A stretch of DNA of 64,000 nt from Escherichia phage E26, in sequence record MN655998.1; one strand, given 5' to 3'. Both the position numbers and the translations under genes were made by a program. Positions 3,663 through 29,391 of the stretch are shown piece after piece. The notes under the pieces are model-generated. The model did no database searches. It saw nothing but the letters and a program-made list of their open reading frames with translations, and had not been told where the DNA came from. Positions within the stretch are counted from its first letter, which is position 1; every line of letters starts with the position of its first letter.

Positions 3663-3859
3663 CACTTCGCCCCATTGACGATTAACAGGATAGTGATCAG
3701 TACCGGAAACTGGATCATGACAGTACCAAAAAACCGGATAAACGCATTTTCCGACTTCCACACATGACATGCGACTAGCTGATAGACCATTGTTGCAACC
3801 AAAGCCAGAAAATACATCTCGATTGGTGCTTCTTTGATCAATCGTACAATCTCATTCAT
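3662..3859 (-). CDS. small membrane protein
   Basis: 65 aa with two hydrophobic helices. Confidence 0.4.
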   Translation of the reverse strand: MNEIVRLIKEAPIEMYFLALVATMVYQLVACHVWKSENAFIRFFGTVMIQFPVLITILLIVNGAK

Positions 3860-4021
3860 ACTTCACCTCATACATTCATAAACACAACAACGAATAATAC
3901 AGTAACAGTTATCAACGCCATTTTCAACCCCATATTCATAATATTTTCTTCGCCTCACGATGACAGTAGCATGTCGATGCGTGCCATTATAGGCATCTAA
4001 ATCGCTCTGTCAAGCACTAAA

Positions 4022-4050
4022 AACAAAAAAGCCACCCCGAAGGATGGCTG
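4022..4050 (-). terminator. Rho-independent terminator (minus strand) after hoc
   Basis: Minus-strand RNA GCCAUCC-UUCG-GGGUGGC followed by UUUUUU. Confidence 0.6.
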
Positions 4051-4060
4051 ATAGATTTCA

Positions 4061-5275
4061 TTAAGCAGGATGCGTTTCACGAATGCATAGAACTCGCTCT
4101 AACGTATCTCGGTCCAGTTTATGTAAATCTTTGGAATGATACATGAAACCATTGCGAGATTCCATGCAAGTGCAATCACTATATTTTTCTTCCGCTGCCG
4201 CGATTGTCTCCAGATCTTTGGCGTACTTGCTGGTAGAATAAACTTCTCGGTCACGCCACTCTAACCCAGCCTCATTGAATTTAACAATCTCGTCAAATAC
4301 CCACCATCCAATGTAGATAAATGAAGTTTTGCGCCACGGGATCGGGTGTACGTAACGAAACATTTTAACAACTTCCATTGAACATTTTCTACTTGTACTT
4401 GTTGCAACTTCTACTGTTTCATTTTCGATCTGTTGATATAGTTTAGCAACACACCAGAATTTGGCTGTGTCATCGTAAGTAGCACTCTCTTTGAACAGAT
4501 GACCGTCTGGAGTGATAGAAAATCCTTCCTGTGCTTCGCCGACCTCATTACCGATCAGAGTCGGTGACAGTTGCCCTTCGCGCTGCAAATACCAGTTATG
4601 TTTGATCGTCAATTCAGGCATACCGCTAGAATCGCCTACAATGTCCTCTGACACAACATAATTAAGTAAGATCTCATTACCTAGTGCCACGGTCTTTGAT
4701 TCCACCACATCCTGTTCTACGTTCATTGTTGCCAGCATGATTTTAGTCGATGCGCTATTGGCTGAATCTTCCGACTCACCCCACACTTTTACAGTATACA
4801 CGCCGTTTTTATCTGCTGTAAATTTTTGGATTGTAATATCCTGTTTTGTGTCTATAACTTCTTCGCCCTTACTCCAACTATAATGTAGTTCATAGTTGTC
4901 TGATGGAGTCTTCCCACCAGAAAAATTTACTGTTGCATGTAATTCTACGTCTGTTTGTGATGATACGTAGAAATGCTGCGGTTCGGTGATATTTACGATT
5001 AATTCCGCTTCTTCCATGAGGAAAACTTCAGATTCTACTGATGTCGTCGTATCGGTATCTTGTACCGTTACTTTATAGCTACCCGCATTTTCACTTGTTG
5101 CGCCTTCTACAGTTAGCGTAGCTGTGTTATTTTCATGCGGTTGGTCGTCTTTTGTCCATGTATATGTCAAATTGCTGGGTAATGGTTCGTCACCCTCTAC
5201 AGTCGCCGTTAAGGTGAAACCATCGCCAGCAAGAAAACATCTTTTGTCAGATTTAATTGATACTGTGAAAGCCAT
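4061..5275 (-). CDS. hoc: highly immunogenic outer capsid protein Hoc
   Basis: 404 aa; Ig-like N-terminal repeats; C-terminal capsid-binding motifs YVHPIPWR, GWWVFDEIV, ESRNGF matching T4 Hoc. Confidence 0.85.
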   Translation of the reverse strand: MAFTVSIKSDKRCFLAGDGFTLTATVEGDEPLPSNLTYTWTKDDQPHENNTATLTVEGATSENAGSYKVTVQDTDTTTSVESEVFLMEEAELIVNITEPQHFYVSSQTDVELHATVNFSGGKTPSDNYELHYSWSKGEEVIDTKQDITIQKFTADKNGVYTVKVWGESEDSANSASTKIMLATMNVEQDVVESKTVALGNEILLNYVVSEDIVGDSSGMPELTIKHNWYLQREGQLSPTLIGNEVGEAQEGFSITPDGHLFKESATYDDTAKFWCVAKLYQQIENETVEVATSTSRKCSMEVVKMFRYVHPIPWRKTSFIYIGWWVFDEIVKFNEAGLEWRDREVYSTSKYAKDLETIAAAEEKYSDCTCMESRNGFMYHSKDLHKLDRDTLERVLCIRETHPA

Positions 5276-20676: not shown

Positions 20677-20971
20677 TATCTTTTAAGAACTCATCCCATG
20701 AATGGCGGATATTGTTCTTAATTCTCCAGATAAGCGCAGGGATTGAACGCTCTCCCATCTGGAAGTAAGGATCATATGATCCATATGCCCAATATGCTAC
20801 TACAATTCCACAATCAGCGCAATAATATTCTATTTCACTTGCTGGCGACCAAAGTCCATCAATATGATCGGTGATCCTGCTTTCGATGTTATGGCTATGG
20901 CAATCAGGGCAACGGATGCAATGACCTTGTTTATCGTAATTTGACGTTAGCGAATACTTAAACAATCTCAT
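20642..20971 (-). CDS. zinc-ribbon protein
   Basis: 109 aa; CIRCPDCHSH and CADCG Cys pairs; overlaps both neighbours. Confidence 0.5.
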   Translation of the reverse strand: MRLFKYSLTSNYDKQGHCIRCPDCHSHNIESRITDHIDGLWSPASEIEYYCADCGIVVAYWAYGSYDPYFQMGERSIPALIWRIKNNIRHSWDEFLKDIDLRDDPFRRL

Positions 20972-21687
20972 TATAGATCCTTATTTGCTTCAAATACTGC
21001 CTTTGCGAATCCTCGCGGGGTAAGTGACCTTATAGTCTTTGTTTTCGTTCCTTTCCCGCCTAGCTTAGAATGCTGTTTACTGTACCCTTTATTAATCTGC
21101 AACGGTTTCTTTTCTGGCATTATAAAGCCTTGTCCGGTCCATAAGCAAGTCCTTTTCGGGTACATATCACGGGCGGCAATATACTCAGGAAAAGTAGGAT
21201 GTTTATCATCTTCCGGCAAATAACCGCCATATTCCCACGGATGGAACATATAATCAGGCTTACGCCACATGCTAGAGATAACGCTTACAGGATTCTCTAT
21301 CATGTAGGGAACTCCTAGCCATTCACCCAAATAAGCGGTTATTTTAGCTGCCCGTACATCATGAACTTGAATCAATGGTCCTTGCTCTCGTTTCTTTCGT
21401 TCAAAGTGTGCAGCGCCACTAACAGCTAAATTGGTGCACGGTGGGAATGCAAATATAATATCCGGTTTCCCCCATTCAAGGTCCATTGCTCTTTCTAGCC
21501 AGTTCAAATCAATCCATGTGTTTACATATGTAATGTTTGGATGTTCAAATCGGGTATTATATTTTTTGTATGTACCGTGGTCGCCATCGTCAGCATTAAA
21601 GCAGATCACCTTATGACCTGCTTTAGCCCATTCTAACCCCATTATCCCCGATCCGTCAAAGTTGCAGAATATTAATTTTTGTTTCAC
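20971..21687 (-). CDS. minimal C5-cytosine methyltransferase-like protein
   Basis: 238 aa; motif I-like FDGSGIMGLE, motif IV-like FAFPPCTNLAVSGA, motif VI-like MIENPV, motif IX-like RSLTPRGFAKAV in correct order and spacing. Confidence 0.6.
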   Translation of the reverse strand: MKQKLIFCNFDGSGIMGLEWAKAGHKVICFNADDGDHGTYKKYNTRFEHPNITYVNTWIDLNWLERAMDLEWGKPDIIFAFPPCTNLAVSGAAHFERKKREQGPLIQVHDVRAAKITAYLGEWLGVPYMIENPVSVISSMWRKPDYMFHPWEYGGYLPEDDKHPTFPEYIAARDMYPKRTCLWTGQGFIMPEKKPLQINKGYSKQHSKLGGKGTKTKTIRSLTPRGFAKAVFEANKDL

Positions 21688-22004: not shown

Positions 22005-22018
22005 CACTTTTTATAAAA

Positions 22019-22186
22019 TTATTTGTTAATTTCCGGTGCGTTGCTTGGATAGTAACCTTCTTTAACTCCGAGGTATTTCGCAACCATCCCTACAATCTTC
22101 TGTGCTACTACAATGTCAAATTTCAGATAATCTTCACCGTAGGTTTCAATGATATATGCTTCACATGCTGCTTTAGTCTCGAACAT
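22019..22186 (-). CDS. small hypothetical protein (55 aa), paralog of 25287..25454
   Basis: Manual translation MFETKAACEAYIIETYGEDYLKFDIVVAQKIVGMVAKYLGVKEGYYPSNAPEINK; not in ORF track. Confidence 0.5.
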   Translation of the reverse strand: MFETKAACEAYIIETYGEDYLKFDIVVAQKIVGMVAKYLGVKEGYYPSNAPEINK

Positions 22187-22219
22187 TTTGATTCTCCTAT
22201 TTCGTTTCGGTATGTGTGT

Positions 22220-22248
22220 ATTATAGGGGATCTCCCGATCCCCGTCAA
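22220..22248 (-). promoter_or_regulatory. PeSL-like early promoter cassette 4
   Basis: TTGACG-GGGATCGGGAGATCCCC-TATAAT; palindrome with GATC sites. Confidence 0.6.
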
Positions 22249-22263
22249 CAACTTTTTTTAAAA

Positions 22264-22545
22264 TTATTCGTGATTAGTTTCGATGTTGTGCATTTTGCAC
22301 CAGTTCAGCCAATCGCCCAGTTCTTGATAGTTGATGCTTTTATCTGCTGCCATCGTTTTTGTCTTGATACCCATATGTGCGTTATGAGTAAGCATTTTTA
22401 CAGTGAACTCGATTTTATCGCCTTTAGCTTTAACATCAACCAGTTTGGTCCACTGGCTACCAGCACCGCGAATGTTCATGCCAACGATGTTTCCGATGTA
22501 TGCTTCTTTGTTTTTCAGGATTTCGGTTGCTTTGATGAATTTCAT
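22264..22545 (-). CDS. small hypothetical protein
   Basis: 93 aa; promoter cassette and SD upstream. Confidence 0.55.
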   Translation of the reverse strand: MKFIKATEILKNKEAYIGNIVGMNIRGAGSQWTKLVDVKAKGDKIEFTVKMLTHNAHMGIKTKTMAADKSINYQELGDWLNWCKMHNIETNHE

Positions 22546-22978: not shown

Positions 22979-23004
22979 TAAAAAAGCCGACGCTAAGGTC
23001 GGCT
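22979..23004 (-). terminator. Rho-independent terminator (minus strand)
   Basis: AGCCGAC-GCTAAG-GTCGGCT hairpin; U-run on minus strand. Confidence 0.55.
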
Positions 23005-23011
23005 AATAAAA

Positions 23012-23320
23012 TCATTTAGACAAATAATCATTCTGTGCAATCCGGTCAGCATGTTCCGGCGTTACGTCAATTGCAATCACTTTAACGCGTGCTTTCTTGC
23101 GACCTGGGTTTTCTCGTAGCCAGTGCGTGTGACCGTACAAATTTTTATACTTTGATGCTTCTTCGAAGGTACGGATCGGACCTGGGTAATCAGCGTAAAG
23201 GATCTCTAGATCTTCGGTGATGTAAAAATATACATCGTAATTGCTGTTCTCTAGCTTAAGCAGAGACTTTCGGAACATTGGGAGATTTTCGCGGGTAAAT
23301 TCAAAGATATTATCTTTCAT
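23012..23320 (-). CDS. HxHW-AVDV family protein, copy A
   Basis: 102 aa from internal Met MKDNIFEF; motifs VYFYITEDL, HTHW, IAIDV; track N-terminus reads through the terminator hairpin. Confidence 0.55.
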   Translation of the reverse strand: MKDNIFEFTRENLPMFRKSLLKLENSNYDVYFYITEDLEILYADYPGPIRTFEEASKYKNLYGHTHWLRENPGRKKARVKVIAIDVTPEHADRIAQNDYLSK

Positions 23321-23343
23321 AGTATTATCCTCAATAGTTGGAT

Positions 23344-23366
23344 GAAAAGGGGGGCTTAACGCCCCC
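23344..23366 (-). terminator. Rho-independent terminator (minus strand)
   Basis: GGGGGGC-TTAAC-GCCCCC hairpin. Confidence 0.5.
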
Positions 23367-23371
23367 ATATA

Positions 23372-23659
23372 TTAAAACAGTCCTTCCTGTACACCGTAAT
23401 AGAGTTCGTCGCTGATAATTTCATTAATGCGACGGTGTGCATATTCCTGATTTGCGAAGTTGTCAGCAAGTTCTACTTTAGTTTCTCCGTCATGAGTCCA
23501 TTTAGTGATAACTTTACCATCTGCAAATTTGAAGTTGAACTCTTTAGCTACCGCATCGCGTACCAGACGTGCAAACTTATTGTTGCGGATTGCATTGTCG
23601 GTTTCGTGTGCAGCGTGAGCGAATTTGTTAACTTTCAGAGTGATAGTAATGTATGCCAT
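23372..23659 (-). CDS. small hypothetical protein (AKEFN motif)
   Basis: 95 aa; shares AKEFN-containing segment with ORF 26672..26983. Confidence 0.55.
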   Translation of the reverse strand: MAYITITLKVNKFAHAAHETDNAIRNNKFARLVRDAVAKEFNFKFADGKVITKWTHDGETKVELADNFANQEYAHRRINEIISDELYYGVQEGLF

Positions 23660-23705
23660 AATTTGATTCTCCTAGTTAGAAAGTGTATCTCGTTTCGATG
23701 GGTGT

Positions 23706-23734
23706 ATTATGCTATACACCCGACCTTATGTCAA
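23706..23734 (-). promoter_or_regulatory. PeSL-like early promoter cassette 7
   Basis: TTGACA-N17-CATAAT; palindrome GGGTGTAT..ATACACCC across -10. Confidence 0.55.
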
Positions 23735-23740
23735 CACTTT

Positions 23741-24019
23741 TTATAAAATAATTTTTTGATATTTTTCTATGATGTTCGTGTAAGTCACATCAACCGCTAG
23801 CACCGTTGCTTCGAATCCACCGTTTAGCCAATGGCTATGGTCATGATCGTGAAAGAAACCAAGACCAGTACGAAGACCTTCTTTATATTCTGCGCGTACA
23901 TTTAGATCATCATCGATAAACAGATAAAACCATGAATTTTTACTAGGATTGATGATACAACCTTTCAGATTAGGGAGAATATCACGACTAAGAATAAACT
24001 TATCACCTACTTTGAACAT
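23741..24019 (-). CDS. HxHW-AVDV family protein, copy B
   Basis: 92 aa from internal Met MFKVGDKF (SD GAGGA); motifs WFYLFIDDDL, HDHDHSHW, LAVDV. Confidence 0.55.
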   Translation of the reverse strand: MFKVGDKFILSRDILPNLKGCIINPSKNSWFYLFIDDDLNVRAEYKEGLRTGLGFFHDHDHSHWLNGGFEATVLAVDVTYTNIIEKYQKIIL

Positions 24020-24033
24020 AATATTTTCCTCAC

Positions 24034-24342
24034 TTATAAAGTTTGACCGTTGTTTTTCGCGTAATGCTGAATGCGTGCTTGATCTGCTTCCGCTGGTGAT
24101 AGATTCCATGCAACCACTACAACTTCTGACGCATCGTCATCCGTTTTTGATACCCAATGATTATGATTCATACAATTGTTTGCTATCGCGTGAGCAAATG
24201 ATTTCATCACTGGAGATGTATAATCATAGTAACGGATTTTCAGATTTTCATCAACATACAAGTAGATCGTATAAGGTTTATATTCAGTAACCAGTAACAG
24301 ACAGTTACGCAATTCTGGGAAAATCTTTTTAGTTAATTTCAT
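24034..24342 (-). CDS. HxHW-AVDV family protein, copy C (divergent)
   Basis: 102 aa from internal Met MKLTKKIF (SD GAGGA); motifs YLYVDENL, NHNHW. Confidence 0.5.
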   Translation of the reverse strand: MKLTKKIFPELRNCLLLVTEYKPYTIYLYVDENLKIRYYDYTSPVMKSFAHAIANNCMNHNHWVSKTDDDASEVVVVAWNLSPAEADQARIQHYAKNNGQTL

Positions 24343-24343
24343 T

Positions 24344-24565
24344 TTATAATCCTCGGTCGCGGCTATAGTACACGGTACGCCATACAATTTCATGTTTCGT
24401 GTCGCTCCAGCACACGATCTCATTTACTCTTAAATCTTTGTTATCAACAAAAGATGAACATTGTGACGTTTCTTTCATCATTTTATCTGCTGTTTTCTCA
24501 TCAAATACAGCACAGATTTCTTTATACACTCGATAATCTTTAAACTTGCTCATAATTAACACCAA
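24344..24565 (-). CDS. small hypothetical protein (MSKFKDY family)
   Basis: 73 aa; tandem paralog of 24556..24765; start may be the internal MSKFKDY Met. Confidence 0.5.
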   Translation of the reverse strand: MVLIMSKFKDYRVYKEICAVFDEKTADKMMKETSQCSSFVDNKDLRVNEIVCWSDTKHEIVWRTVYYSRDRGL

Positions 24566-24765
24566 TCAAGAGTTTTTGAAAACACATCTATCCATTGTTG
24601 AGTATATGCGGTTTCTTTCCATGATACAATACCGGTAGAATAATGGTTTTTGTTTCCAGAAAAGGACGGGCATTTTGATGCATCTTCCATCATCTTTTCG
24701 GCGAACTCTGGTTCGTATACTCGCAAGATCTGTTGATATGCTTTGTAGTCTTTAAATTTGCTCAT
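24556..24765 (-). CDS. small hypothetical protein (MSKFKDY family)
   Basis: 69 aa; MSKFKDYKAY...MMEDASKCPSF parallel to neighbour. Confidence 0.5.
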   Translation of the reverse strand: MSKFKDYKAYQQILRVYEPEFAEKMMEDASKCPSFSGNKNHYSTGIVSWKETAYTQQWIDVFSKTLDWC

Positions 24766-25030
24766 AATCGTTAACTACCTTATCAGCTTCTTTTATTGTT
24801 TTTACATCAACTGCGATAACCCGTAAAGGTTCGTCGTGGTTCCACCAATGATCGTGAATATCAGCTTGTGATTTATCACCAAAGGAATCACGAATATCAT
24901 TTTTACATTTATAGCTAATGTGACCGTCATAGTCAACATAAAGGTAATTATCGAAAATCGGCGTTTTTAAGATCATACCGAAAAATCTTTCTTTGTGTGT
25001 CTTATCCAGCGTTGCAGTAATTCGCATCAT
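24752..25030 (-). CDS. HxHW-AVDV family protein, copy D
   Basis: 92 aa; motifs YLYVDYDG, HDHWW, IAVDV. Confidence 0.55.
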   Translation of the reverse strand: MMRITATLDKTHKERFFGMILKTPIFDNYLYVDYDGHISYKCKNDIRDSFGDKSQADIHDHWWNHDEPLRVIAVDVKTIKEADKVVNDYEQI

Positions 25031-25042
25031 AATATATTCCTC

Positions 25043-25222
25043 TTAGAAAGGGATGGTCATTTCTTGAGCTTGTACATTCTCGTTAGGATTAAACTTCATC
25101 CAACCGATATTGTCTACCAGCATATGTACATTTTTATCATACCCTACGTGAGTAGTCAACACTAAATGTGCTTTACCTTCAACGATGATTTCCATGTACT
25201 TCTGAACTTCGATAGCTTTCAT
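25043..25222 (-). CDS. small hypothetical protein (59 aa)
   Basis: Manual translation MKAIEVQKYMEIIVEGKAHLV...; SD GGAGAATCAA; not in ORF track. Confidence 0.4.
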   Translation of the reverse strand: MKAIEVQKYMEIIVEGKAHLVLTTHVGYDKNVHMLVDNIGWMKFNPNENVQAQEMTIPF

Positions 25223-25254
25223 TTTGATTCTCCGTTTGTTGTCTTGATGGGAGT

Positions 25255-25283
25255 ATCTTACTACTCCCTTTAATCATTGTCAA
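25255..25283 (-). promoter_or_regulatory. PeSL-like early promoter cassette 8
   Basis: TTGACA-N17-TAAGAT; palindrome GGGAGTA..TACTCCC across -10. Confidence 0.5.
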
Positions 25284-25286
25284 CTA

Positions 25287-25454
25287 TTATTTGTTAATTT
25301 CCGGTGCGTTGCTTGGATAGTAACCTTCTTTAACACCCAGATATTTTGCAACCATTCCGGTGATCTTCTGTGCTACTACGATATCGAATTTCAGGTAGTC
25401 TTCACCGTGGGTTGCTACAATGTATGCTTCGCATTCTGCTTTAGTCTGGAACAT
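25287..25454 (-). CDS. small hypothetical protein (55 aa), paralog of 22019..22186
   Basis: Manual translation MFQTKAECEAYIVATHGEDYLKFDIVVAQKITGMVAKYLGVKEGYYPSNAPEINK; not in ORF track. Confidence 0.5.
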   Translation of the reverse strand: MFQTKAECEAYIVATHGEDYLKFDIVVAQKITGMVAKYLGVKEGYYPSNAPEINK

Positions 25455-25488
25455 TTTTGATTCTCCTATATCTCGTTGGTATGTGTGT

Positions 25489-25518
25489 ATTATAGGGGAT
25501 CTCCCGATCCCCTGTCAA
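25489..25518 (-). promoter_or_regulatory. PeSL-like early promoter cassette 9
   Basis: TTGACA-GGGGATCGGGAGATCCCC-TATAAT (18-nt palindromic spacer with GATC sites). Confidence 0.6.
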
Positions 25519-25526
25519 CAACTTTT

Positions 25527-25835
25527 TTATTCTTCATCTTCATTTTTATCTTTATATGCGTACTTCATAAATTTGTCTGCTACTTTGTCCGCGTTTTCAG
25601 GTTCTACGTCTGACGCTAGGACAACAGCTAGTTCGGTTTTGTCGTTTCCATCATACCAATGATTATGAGTGTCGTTTTCTTTGATATAAAACGAATCATT
25701 TGGAGTTGTGCGACAATATACGTCTAAATTCCCATCGATATAAAAGATCCAATCCGAATACAAAATGATTGTTTTAGCCAGATTTTTATTGTCTCTTACA
25801 AAAGGTTCCGCGACAAATAGCTTAGTTTGTTCCAT
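25527..25835 (-). CDS. HxHW-AVDV family protein, copy E
   Basis: 102 aa from internal Met MEQTKLFV (SD GAGGAAA); motifs IFYIDGNL, THNHW, LAVVLASDV. Confidence 0.55.
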   Translation of the reverse strand: MEQTKLFVAEPFVRDNKNLAKTIILYSDWIFYIDGNLDVYCRTTPNDSFYIKENDTHNHWYDGNDKTELAVVLASDVEPENADKVADKFMKYAYKDKNEDEE

Positions 25836-25851
25836 AGTAATTTCCTCAAAA

Positions 25852-26043
25852 TTATACAGCTTCGTAAACTTCCCAATGTCCAACACCAGCACGCTTAACG
25901 AAAAGGTTTTCTTTGATGTTATTCATAAACGTCTGGATGGATTTAATGCGGTTGGAAGGTTTCCAGTCTTCGTTAGCATTGCGGCGATACATTATAACAT
26001 TACCAGATCGCTTATATTCAGCAACCATTTTAAGACCACACAT
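25852..26043 (-). CDS. small hypothetical protein
   Basis: 63 aa; SD GAGGA upstream. Confidence 0.45.
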   Translation of the reverse strand: MCGLKMVAEYKRSGNVIMYRRNANEDWKPSNRIKSIQTFMNNIKENLFVKRAGVGHWEVYEAV

Positions 26044-26099
26044 AATAATATCCTCAATTTGTGGGAGAGTATTACCCTCCCAATTATTGTTATACTACA

Positions 26100-26402
26100 T
26101 TACGCAAAATGGCGTGTCAATGCTTCTTTTGCTGTTCCGCTAAGATTCTCGATCTCTCCTGGCATAACATCAACCGCCAGAACTTCTACAACATCCTCTG
26201 ATCCTAACCAGTGAGTATGACCTTTGTAGAACTTGATATCCCATTTAACGCTATCGCTAGCCCACCACACATCACCGTCGATAAAGTTGATGTAAAGCAC
26301 ACTACGACACATTGAATTAATTACTTTCAATACTGCGCCTTTCATCTCTTCCACGGTATGGTCTTCCATTTTGAAGACCTCACCTACCTGAACTTTTGCC
26401 AT
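26100..26402 (-). CDS. HxHW-AVDV family protein, copy F
   Basis: 100 aa; motifs LYINFIDGDV, HTHW, LAVDV; SD AGAGGTG. Confidence 0.55.
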   Translation of the reverse strand: MAKVQVGEVFKMEDHTVEEMKGAVLKVINSMCRSVLYINFIDGDVWWASDSVKWDIKFYKGHTHWLGSEDVVEVLAVDVMPGEIENLSGTAKEALTRHFA

Positions 26403-26633: not shown

Positions 26634-26663
26634 ATTATAGGGGAGTTTAGCCTCCCCTGTCAA
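26634..26663 (-). promoter_or_regulatory. PeSL-like early promoter cassette 10
   Basis: TTGACA-GGGGAGGCTAAACTCCCC-TATAAT; palindromic spacer. Confidence 0.55.
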
Positions 26664-26671
26664 CAACTTTT

Positions 26672-26983
26672 TTAAAGTTTTTCCATGATAACGGTCATAA
26701 TTACATCTTCTGCGCGAGCGGTCAGATTATCAGCGTCAGCATGTGGGCGGTTGGTTGTTACAGAGATAACACCGTTGCGCACTGGTTTGATATTGATATC
26801 AAGATGATCCGCGAAACGTTCGCCAGTTACAGAATGAATTTTGGTGTTAAATTCTTTTGCCAGTGCCTTGCGAACTTCACGAATCAGGATAGCGTTTTTC
26901 AGTTGGTTCTCCGCGCTCATGGTCTTCTGGGTGTTCATGGTTCCGTCGAAGTCAATCATTGGCAGCGTTACGATGTATTTCAT
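26672..26983 (-). CDS. small hypothetical protein (AKEFN motif)
   Basis: 103 aa; paralogous segment with 23372..23659. Confidence 0.55.
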   Translation of the reverse strand: MKYIVTLPMIDFDGTMNTQKTMSAENQLKNAILIREVRKALAKEFNTKIHSVTGERFADHLDINIKPVRNGVISVTTNRPHADADNLTARAEDVIMTVIMEKL

Positions 26984-27028: not shown

Positions 27029-27057
27029 AGTATAGGGGATCGGTGATCCCCTGTCAA
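27029..27057 (-). promoter_or_regulatory. PeSL-like early promoter cassette 11
   Basis: TTGACA-GGGGATCACCGATCCCC-TATACT. Confidence 0.55.
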
Positions 27058-27070
27058 CAACTTTTTTGAA

Positions 27071-27415
27071 TTATTTTTTCATGAGCTTAATTGCTTCTTC
27101 CATAGCCAACACATTTCGATAGTTAGGGTATCGTGTTAGATCGTCATACATTCGCTTAAGGGTGGAAACTTCCTCAAACTCTGGGTTTTCTAGATACAGT
27201 TGAACAAATTGTTTCTCTATCATCTCTGCTTTTAGCTTGTCTGCTTGTTCCTGTTCATATGATTTAGTTGGACCCAACACCAACAAAATGATAAAGGTGA
27301 TCAACGGGCTAATGATCAACGATAGGATAACATAACCGATAACGCTACGGTTTAAACGGCTTGCATACATGCCTACCAGGAAAACAAAAAGGATATAGAT
27401 AAACAGAAAGAACAT
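27071..27415 (-). CDS. membrane protein
   Basis: 114 aa; two N-terminal transmembrane helices. Confidence 0.5.
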   Translation of the reverse strand: MFFLFIYILFVFLVGMYASRLNRSVIGYVILSLIISPLITFIILLVLGPTKSYEQEQADKLKAEMIEKQFVQLYLENPEFEEVSTLKRMYDDLTRYPNYRNVLAMEEAIKLMKK

Positions 27416-27422
27416 ATAATGG

Positions 27423-27896
27423 TTACTCCTTATTTTCGCGCTCGTACTTTTCGAAATAAAATTCTACTGGCTGGTCATTAATTGACAGCAAGCCAAAGCG
27501 TTTAGCCGCTCGCAATCCCATATTGCGCTGAATGTACTTCTGGAAGTTCTCGCGTATACACTTACGCCAGTATTCTAAGCCCATACAGCTTTTATAAAGA
27601 TTGCATTGCACACACGCCGGATTCATGTTATCAAGTATATCATGTTCCGGTTTATGCATTCCTACAACCTTATACTTCCACGATCCATCATCATTACGGG
27701 CAATTCGTCCATTTTCATCATAGACTACCTTTGAGCGTCGCAATACTGGTTTGATGTGGTCTGCGTGCCAGCGATCCCCTAGTTCCTCGCCACAATAGGC
27801 ACAACGTCCACCATATTTCATTTTCAGGATCTGGCGTTGCTCTTTCTTTGACAATTTTTTAGGTTTAGGGGCTTTTGCCCCTTCATTATCACACAT
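27423..27896 (-). CDS. HNH endonuclease (freestanding, homing-endonuclease-like)
   Basis: 157 aa; CAYCGEEL...WHADHIKP HNH core and second Cys pair CVQCN; start overlaps end of ligase gene. Confidence 0.75.
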   Translation of the reverse strand: MCDNEGAKAPKPKKLSKKEQRQILKMKYGGRCAYCGEELGDRWHADHIKPVLRRSKVVYDENGRIARNDDGSWKYKVVGMHKPEHDILDNMNPACVQCNLYKSCMGLEYWRKCIRENFQKYIQRNMGLRAAKRFGLLSINDQPVEFYFEKYERENKE

Positions 27897-29391
27897 CGAA
27901 TACCTCTTTTACTGTATTTGCAGTGGTCTTGTCGTAGCGAATACGTTTGATGATTGGGAGAAATAAAGAGAACTCCGGTTCATCTTCTTTACGTGATTTG
28001 CTGCGGATATACCCGTTGCATGTCATCTCAATGACTTTTCCAATCAGGTTATGACGATCAGCCCATAACATTTCTCGGTCGAGTTCATTTCTACGATCGA
28101 ACGGAATTACACGTTCAATACCATCATCACCTTTTTCGGTTGTAGTGTCGGTTAATCCAGATCCGGTGTTAGTCATCATTCGTCCGCACGCACTACGGAC
28201 AGTAAAACCGCCTACCTTATTGGGGTCTTTACTATGCGGATATACATCAACAATTTCCGCGTCGAAGTCAATCACTTCTTTAAATTTAACCTGATCTTTA
28301 CTACGGCGATCTTCAAATACACCATGTAAATTTTTAAGGATAATACCTTCTAAGCCCATGTTTACATAGCGATGATATACTTCGCGAGCTTCGTCTATAT
28401 TGTTAACTACAGTGTTTTCGATTATCTGAACACGAGGATCGTTAAGTTCTTCAACAATCTGTTTTAGTTCTTCGAATCGATCTTTATATTGCTTCGTTGC
28501 TTTCTCGTTTCCGTAATACACATCACGGTCGATAACATCCCAGACAGTGTAAACAATACATTGGGCTTCTTCTTTTGGAATAGTTCCTTTCAGTGATTTG
28601 TTGAGGATACCATTTCCGGTCTGACGATCTGCAACAACGGATTCTTTTACTGCTTCCGCTACTGGAGTTAATGGCATTTCCTCTTCTTCAAATATCCATG
28701 ACAGAGTACCATCATAAACGCTCTCAACGAAGTTCTGCGCTGGTGTTTGTGAAAGGGTAGGCATATATACCAATTCGCCATCTAGAACAATTCCACGGCC
28801 TCGTAGACGCTCTAAAACCGCAAACAAATCATCAAGCCCTTGATAGGTATTACCTGAGCGGGTATAGATTGCTAATGTTTCCCCGTCAATATCAGCCATA
28901 CCACGAGCGCCATCGCTTTTAAGTTGTGCATACGCCGGATATTTGATATTGGCAATAGTCTTATCAGAACATGACGATGCAAGGTGGCACGGTTGCTGAG
29001 GAATCAGTTTCTTCCATACCTTGTTTGCAGTGGTAGCGGAACAGCCGCATTCCAGATCACGATTCAGGACCATCATCGCAACTTTAGCATCATCCTCTGA
29101 CAAGCAAGTCAGAGTATCGGTAACTAGCTGTAATGCTGCATTACCAGTTACTTGACGCGTGGCAAGTTTATTTTTAAAGACCTGTAATGCACCGGATAAA
29201 GACAATACAGACGAATAGCGAGATGGTTTATCGTATTTCTTTACGCCAAACGTAACCTGTTTGCAATATGCCAGATAAAAGCATTCTTTCAGCGTTTCAT
29301 TGCTCGCGGATTCTTTCAGGATCTTTTCTTTCAGCGATGTTTTGTCGGTTGCTGCAAGCTGATTAATGATATTAAGAATTGACATTTTCAC
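27889..29391 (-). CDS. 30: ATP-dependent DNA ligase gp30
   Basis: 500 aa; KADGAR adenylation motif, DGELV, EGIILK, near-colinear with T4 DNA ligase. Confidence 0.92.
   Translation of the reverse strand: MKMSILNIINQLAATDKTSLKEKILKESASNETLKECFYLAYCKQVTFGVKKYDKPSRYSSVLSLSGALQVFKNKLATRQVTGNAALQLVTDTLTCLSEDDAKVAMMVLNRDLECGCSATTANKVWKKLIPQQPCHLASSCSDKTIANIKYPAYAQLKSDGARGMADIDGETLAIYTRSGNTYQGLDDLFAVLERLRGRGIVLDGELVYMPTLSQTPAQNFVESVYDGTLSWIFEEEEMPLTPVAEAVKESVVADRQTGNGILNKSLKGTIPKEEAQCIVYTVWDVIDRDVYYGNEKATKQYKDRFEELKQIVEELNDPRVQIIENTVVNNIDEAREVYHRYVNMGLEGIILKNLHGVFEDRRSKDQVKFKEVIDFDAEIVDVYPHSKDPNKVGGFTVRSACGRMMTNTGSGLTDTTTEKGDDGIERVIPFDRRNELDREMLWADRHNLIGKVIEMTCNGYIRSKSRKEDEPEFSLFLPIIKRIRYDKTTANTVKEVFDV

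Follow-up and report, generated by a model that had tools for sequence, protein, structure and literature searches.

Six neighboring genes of a Krischvirus coliphage encode one uncharacterized family of small proteins

Our sequence comparisons confirm that six neighboring small genes in Escherichia phage E26 constitute one genuine paralogous protein family. The role that we favor for their products, tentatively and with somewhat less than an even chance of being right, is that of small, non-catalytic accessory binders made early for host takeover or anti-defence. The DNA analyzed is a 64,000-nucleotide (nt) window of this phage (sequence record MN655998.1), given as one strand 5' to 3' with position 1 as its first letter, and all coordinates below refer to this whole stretch. 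By its matches the window is Krischvirus, the RB49-like, T4-type coliphages of the Straboviridae: a DNA search with a 5-kb stretch around the six genes returned 58 phage records at 92–96% identity, all of them RB49-like Krischvirus coliphages.

One family of six neighboring genes

All six open reading frames (ORFs) listed in an initial annotation of the window's letters are present, on the minus strand, and are labeled A to F here. Copy A (23012..23320; 102 amino acids, aa; RB49 ORF197 type) carries the motifs YFYITEDL, GHTHW, and VIAIDV and matches phrog_9345 at E 6.8e-47, while copy B (23741..24019; 92 aa; ORF199 type) carries YLFIDDDL, HDHDHSHW, and VLAVDV and belongs to phrog_17255. Copy C (24034..24342; 102 aa; ORF200 type; YLYVDENL, NHNHW, VVAWNL) again matches phrog_9345 (E 1.5e-50), and copy D (24752..25030; 92 aa; ORF203 type; YLYVDYDG, IHDHWW, VIAVDV) falls in phrog_15972. 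They are followed by copy E (25527..25835; 102 aa; ORF206 type; phrog_15965), with IFYIDGNL, THNHW, VLASDV, and an acidic tail, and by copy F (26100..26402; 100 aa; ORF208 type), with LYINFIDGD, GHTHW, and VLAVDV, which matches phrog_16486 at E 1.5e-62. Every copy starts with ATG and has its own GAGG-type Shine-Dalgarno site ~6–9 nt upstream (gagagg in copy F). Since the differences between orthologues are mostly synonymous, these are translated genes, not the overlapping-frame artefacts against which the initial annotation had cautioned; the large plus-strand ORFs that overlap them (e.g. 25765-26214) were dismissed as shadows, given the ratios of nonsynonymous to synonymous substitution (dN/dS) of the minus-strand copies.

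The proposal that the six ORFs are paralogues was borne out by several kinds of comparison. The YxY(I/V)D, HxHW, and VLAxDV blocks occupy identical columns in multiple alignments of 6, 28, and 42 sequences, so that the three shared motifs read from the letters alone prove to be positionally conserved. Although identity among the six copies is only 17–31%, pairwise BLASTP links them at E-values from 2e-12 (A–C) to 0.015. Profiles built with one orthologue group left out re-find the window copy of that group at 3.7e-19 (A), 1.2e-13 (B), 8e-14 (C), 4e-14 (D), 1.1e-12 (E), and 1.1e-10 (F), values that may slightly favor the left-out copy because the alignment columns were set with all groups present. 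The same profiles score none of the other stop-to-stop ORFs in the window (602 scanned) at E ≤ 10. All six copies are full-length PHROG members (E 1e-47 to 1e-65), and the PHROG profiles themselves cross-match, with phrog_9345 finding every copy except F and phrog_16486 finding F and A. Whereas PHROG keeps phrog_9345, phrog_17255, phrog_15972, phrog_15965, and phrog_16486 as five separate unannotated families, these cross-matches and the left-out-group profiles unite them into one superfamily.

The family had not been recognized at the outset, and this remains its status: searches for remote homology against Pfam (with the six copies and with 42 members), NCBIfam, PADLOC, and PDB sequence profiles (with two alignments) returned nothing above noise, and the matching PHROGs are all labeled 'unknown function'. 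Its distribution is equally confined. A tblastn search with the six proteins joined in genomic order hit 58 of 50,697 phage records, the same number and organism names as the DNA search; all 58 Krischvirus records carry members, and none was found outside the genus in this collection. When 1.84 billion representative proteins were scanned in full with HMMER, 22 clusters scored E ≤ 0.001, all unannotated, two of which (P0102 and P0103) were set aside as spurious because they are long repeat proteins; a further, word-indexed search from a deeper alignment found no additional members.

Divergent members came from metagenomes, one on a 169-kb Krischvirus-like contig (L013) with the same synteny and others on short contigs. 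The 2.1-kb contig L009 holds five family domains in four abutting genes, one of which encodes a 203-aa protein (P0089) with two different family domains in tandem. On another contig (L011), a 260-aa ORF runs through two 'Z'-type neighbor gene copies into a C-type domain, a single instance that may reflect an assembly error. We also observed a weak seventh member (profile E 6e-4) of 88 aa, whose gene immediately precedes the F orthologue in phage G2494 (L008 4108-4374) and in the Krischvirus-like contig (L013:7918-8184); it has the YV(T/D)xDD hairpin and an LLAxSV strand, lacks the His-Trp pair, and is absent from the window.

Age, selection, and alleles of the array

Orthologues were taken from eight other Krischvirus genomes, which with the window make nine, and exactly six members occur in the same order in all nine. 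Nei-Gojobori dN/dS per orthologue group is 0.23 for A, 0.09 for B, 0.18 for C, 0.15 for D, 0.22 for E, and 0.23 for F, in the same range as the adjacent small genes (0.01–0.36). Within orthologue groups, variability peaks at the N-terminus and in the loop directly before HxHW, where indels occur as well; some F alleles, for example, have a 6-aa insert there. In this loop dN and dS are both raised, and the resulting dN/dS of 0.22, equal to that of the remainder (0.22), comes from pairwise comparisons that exclude the indel-rich positions.

Judged by these comparisons, the six-copy array is old rather than a recent expansion, and each copy is under purifying selection. The initial annotation had read six copies in one cluster as an unusual expansion suggestive of diversification; instead, the copies are too divergent from one another and too fixed in number and order across the nine genomes. 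The diversifying selection it invoked likewise finds no counterpart in ratios of 0.09–0.23 per group, nor in a loop that evolves at the ratio of the rest. A possible precedent for how such an array might arise is the counter-defence gene tifA of phage T4, for which Srikant et al. (2022, bioRxiv 10.1101/2022.04.14.488369) described segmental amplification. The likeness, by analogy, would lie in tandem multiplication of a small accessory gene via short-repeat recombination; the tifA copies, however, are reportedly recent, identical, unstable, and laboratory-selected, whereas the six copies here are ancient, fixed in order, and individually under purifying selection.

The same figures bear on the idea that these ORFs are annotation artefacts or functionless filler in a region prone to recombination. 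In its favor, the ORFs are ORFans, shuffling is known from this region (PMC2839356), and subsets of them can be deleted. The low dN/dS in every copy contradicts non-function, though, and with the conserved lengths and Shine-Dalgarno sites, the confident shared fold predictions described below, and the presence of the family in 58 of 58 Krischvirus records, we consider this explanation hardly credible.

Two of the copies further segregate into allele classes among the genomic loci compared (L001-L008). Copy E exists in classes of 76–78% and 97–99% nucleotide identity to the window, and copy A in classes of 88% and 94%, while the genomes that carry them are otherwise 94–99% identical. This pattern suggests recombination between old alleles in the hyperplastic region in which the genes lie, rather than rapid adaptive change.

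Promoter cassettes and natural deletions

A promoter scan of the minus strand recovered eight sigma-70 consensus promoters matching at 11–12 of 12 positions (at 27057, 26663, 25518, 23734, 22954, 22607, 22248, and 22004), each inside a repeated GC-hairpin cassette of 65–90 nt between 21976 and 27057. In several of them a GGGG...CCCC hairpin lies between the -35 and -10 hexamers, and the cassettes match the published PeSL elements of phages RB49 and phi1. In the RB49 region, PeSL cassettes act as strong promoters and terminators and mediate gene shuffling (PMC2839356). Three of the eight cassettes head the three units that hold all six copies, and copies B to E lack individual cassettes. The first of the three (26634..26663, minus strand; 12/12; PeSL-like repeat D1 with the GC hairpin between the hexamers) heads a unit of a 59-aa ORF, F, a 63-aa ORF, and E. 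The second (25489..25518, minus strand) corresponds by position to PeSL206/205 of RB49, for which high lacZ expression has been reported (PMC2839356), and the third (23706..23734, minus strand; 11/12; PeSL-like repeat D2) heads a 95-aa ORF and A. A terminator scan of the same strand added two hairpins around copy A: a GC-rich stem-loop with a T run between the 95-aa ORF and A (23349..23366), which may be an attenuator, and an intrinsic-terminator-like hairpin with a T run directly after A (22985..23004). The T4-type late promoter motif TATAAATA does not occur on the minus strand from ~20 to 30.4 kb. From the sigma-70 promoters in PeSL repeats and the missing late-promoter motif, we infer that the six genes would be made early in infection.

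This setting is known. PeSL-flanked ORFan cassettes were described in the same region, spanning RB49 ORFs 191-211 (Arbiol et al. 2010, PMC2839356; Comeau et al. 2014, PMC4122927), and the window agrees with those accounts in the sigma-70 promoter joined to a GC stem-loop, in the absence of any homologue of known function, in the variable region lying between core modules, and in gain and loss by cassette recombination, as the natural deletions reported below end in such repeats. It departs from them in having three promoters for six copies, so that most copies are not individual cassettes. In the text of PMC2839356 and PMC4122927 as far as it is searchable, the string 'Paralog' is absent, the sole match to 'duplicat' refers to duplicate cultures, and the ORFs are treated as unrelated orphans. 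The setting of orphan genes and PeSL cassettes is thus familiar, while the family itself is uncharacterized and has no known relatives in sequence or predicted fold.

Despite the fixed order of the array in the nine genomes compared, five of the 58 Krischvirus records lack two or four copies. By tblastn, G5211, PTE-Eco09, and phiS match only D–A and thus lack F and E, whereas FL04 and Cognac match only F–E and lack D, C, B, and A. The deletion end points were checked in two isolates, FL04 and G5211. In FL04, the stretch corresponding to 25286 to 22257 of the window is missing, and the junction lies within a direct repeat formed by two 'Y' genes and their cassettes; G5211 lacks the stretch from 27436 to 25528. 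The upstream copy of the direct repeat (25286..25544) and its downstream counterpart (22018..22275), each a Y gene with a PeSL cassette (repeats D1 and D3), form the two end points of the D+C+B+A deletion. The adjoining PeSL cassettes, on the minus strand, occupy 25455-25544 and 22186-22275, and the Y-gene pair is 87% identical in DNA over 172 nt at a spacing of 3268 nt (~3.27 kb). The 55-aa products of the Y genes (Y1, 25287-25454; Y2, 22019-22186; both minus strand) are 89% identical, far closer than any pair of the six copies.

Copy A is in addition frameshifted in phages JSE and kvi (P0081 and P0072). Taken with the deletions, every copy is therefore missing or disrupted in one or more isolates able to grow on laboratory E. 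coli, and, judged by these genomes, subsets of the six genes are dispensable in viable natural isolates. These variants also bear on whether the paralogues might be subunits of one hetero-oligomer or act in pairs, as the tandem two-domain fusion P0089 suggests. Given the viable isolates without F+E or without D+C+B+A and the two A frameshifts, the six copies are not one obligatory complex; they are, moreover, spread over three transcription units, and we regard such joint action as rather improbable. One further frameshift was followed and dropped. Phages SAP (L018; B orthologue at 3809-4087) and TB34 (L019) are 99.96% identical, the B gene of TB34 carries a 1-nt insertion, and the two are reported to differ in cytosine modification (PMC13390438); the variant table in that paper, however, lists ~45 frameshifts, in genes such as those for DNA polymerase, clamp, and ribonucleotide reductase, which look like assembly errors, so that the insertion allows no inference about B and cytosine modification.

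Predicted fold, locus setting, and candidate roles

The six proteins are soluble, neutral to acidic, and 92–102 aa long, with isoelectric points (pI) of 4.5–6.9, net charges of 0 to -10, and no membrane character. AlphaFold models computed from family alignments gave a predicted local distance difference test score (pLDDT) of 79.9 and a predicted template modeling score (pTM) of 0.77 for F, and 87.5 and 0.81 for E. Both models have the same topology, an antiparallel sheet of four to five strands in which four strands lead through a loop to a hydrophobic fifth strand (VLAxDV), followed by a C-terminal helix; in the E model a short helical turn between the loop and the fifth strand carries HxHW. 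The models place the Asp of the YxYID block in a tight hairpin turn, and this residue is probably structural. Foldseek against predicted viral structures (BFVD) found only the family's own members at probability ≥0.97, and the predicted fold had no match among solved structures. Small phage or effector-immunity inhibitors with an alpha/beta-sheet fold, namely the Tas1-complex immunity protein (6ox6_B), AcrIIA7 (8kbi), and the anti-Thoeris protein Tad2 (9eib), were compared as the nearest known proteins of this kind; fold similarity to Tad2/DUF2829, AcrIIA7, and similar proteins was not significant, and none of the 42 members has a Pfam match to DUF2829 or to any Acr family.

Across the 42 sequences, the sole invariant residues are the Trp of HxHW and its second His, and the first His and a Phe ~8 residues upstream are at least 90% conserved. 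The HxH-Trp turn, with the conserved Phe and acidic residues, might form a metal or nucleotide-type site, and the main rival to our reading is accordingly a metal- or small-ligand module whose paralogues would differ in ligand and could serve as immune-signal sponges or small metalloproteins. The initial annotation had likewise taken the His cluster as a hint of metal binding. That case is weak: Ser or Asp replaces the first His in the otherwise intact orthologues P0086, P0087, and P0092, a third or fourth invariant ligand column is lacking, both the YxYID Asp and the VLAxDV Asp differ between groups, and copy A has no Cys. HxH metal-binding proteins, exemplified by the cupins with their G-x5-HxH-x3,4-E motif, keep three to four invariant ligands, where this family keeps one His; nor is the predicted fold a cupin-type beta-barrel. 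With no cupin, histidine-triad, or DUF2829 match above threshold and all fold scores in the noise range, we hold the ligand module to be unlikely, albeit the foremost of the competing explanations.

Much less probable is that the proteins are small nucleic-acid-binding regulators built on an SH3-, KOW-, or Sm-like barrel that would tune phage or host RNA or DNA transactions. Their acidic to neutral pI and their zero to negative net charge speak against it, no KOW, Sm, or Tudor Pfam match was found in the 42 members, and structural scores stayed below a meaningful level. The combination expected of KOW, SH3-like, or Sm-like small beta-barrels, a sequence motif with a closed five-stranded barrel, was not found in the family, and a KVGD start occurs in only two of the six groups.

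The six genes lie within the ligase-alt hyperplastic region, with gene 30 (DNA ligase) on one side and a Dcm-type methyltransferase gene and alt on the other. Gene 30 was placed at 27889-29391 (minus strand) from the window's ORF list and RB49-type synteny. The RB49 counterpart is flanked by gene 30 and an HNH endonuclease gene on one side and by a DNA methyltransferase gene, small ORFs, and alt ADP-ribosyltransferase genes on the other; there, all genes share one strand and the annotation is 'hypothetical protein' throughout, and the equivalents in the window are on the minus strand. The neighborhood includes genes of host-takeover and anti-restriction type, for Alt ADP-ribosyltransferases, the Dcm-type methylase, and a GmrSD_N-domain protein. 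The cytosine-C5 (Dcm-type) DNA methyltransferase gene sits at the region's edge (20971-21687, minus strand; an alternative internal start is annotated in RB49) and is relevant context, as the genus is reported to include phages with unmodified cytosine. Toward the opposite end, a 114-aa ORF with a hydrophobic N-terminal half (27071-27415, minus strand) is of the RB49 ORF211 type, which has been likened to an ORF of a Vibrio fischeri superintegron (PMC2839356); the window, RB49, and PHB13 have this ORF, and kaaroe, ELT4, and ECD7 lack it, their HNH gene directly abutting the next cassette. Of the ~19 genes in the region, six belong to the one family and four others form two pairs. A supposed resemblance between two more ORFs (X1, 26672-26983, and X2, 23372-23659) was dropped at a BLASTP E-value of 8.1.

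An accessory role in host interaction is plausible from the early promoters, the hyperplastic region, and the natural deletion variants. On the reading that we favor, the conserved blocks would form a common scaffold, with specificity set by two parts that vary among paralogues and alleles, the N-terminus and the indel-rich loop before HxHW. Most likely each copy would then bind, and block or redirect, a different macromolecule of the host or of a competing element in the first minutes of infection, and the family would amount to a set of binders for host takeover or anti-defence, each useful under certain conditions. Several observations weigh against this proposal. Positive selection, often seen in arms-race proteins, was found neither gene-wide nor in the loop relative to the rest (dN/dS 0.22 in both). 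Guilt by association within the hyperplastic region is weak evidence, and a literature search found no paper mentioning the locus tags of the six genes. The near-invariant His-x-His-Trp could mark a ligand or metal site, and the tandem fusion P0089 is a hint that the domains may cooperate instead of each serving a single target.

A more specific alternative would make the proteins an unrecognized fold family of immune-evasion proteins, each neutralizing its own target among E. coli defence or host factors, by direct binding or by sequestration of a signaling nucleotide in a His-Trp-Phe pocket, and the region a multi-target counter-defence array. We think this doubtful. Such an array would matter because cytosine is unmodified in at least some members of the genus, TB34 among them (PMC13390438), which leaves them without the protection that T4 gets from modified DNA.

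Whichever role applies, the family brings five 'unknown' PHROG families together as one domain family, with confident models that match no solved structure, and its array, being old and under selection, is no transient amplification. In T4-type phages, small early orphan genes form a main reservoir of host-takeover and counter-defence functions, and very few of these genes have been assigned. The sequenced isolates that lack F+E (G5211, PTE-Eco09, and phiS) or D+C+B+A (FL04 and Cognac) permit comparisons of host range and defence sensitivity without engineering, and a function found for this family would account for about one-third of the genes in the hyperplastic region.

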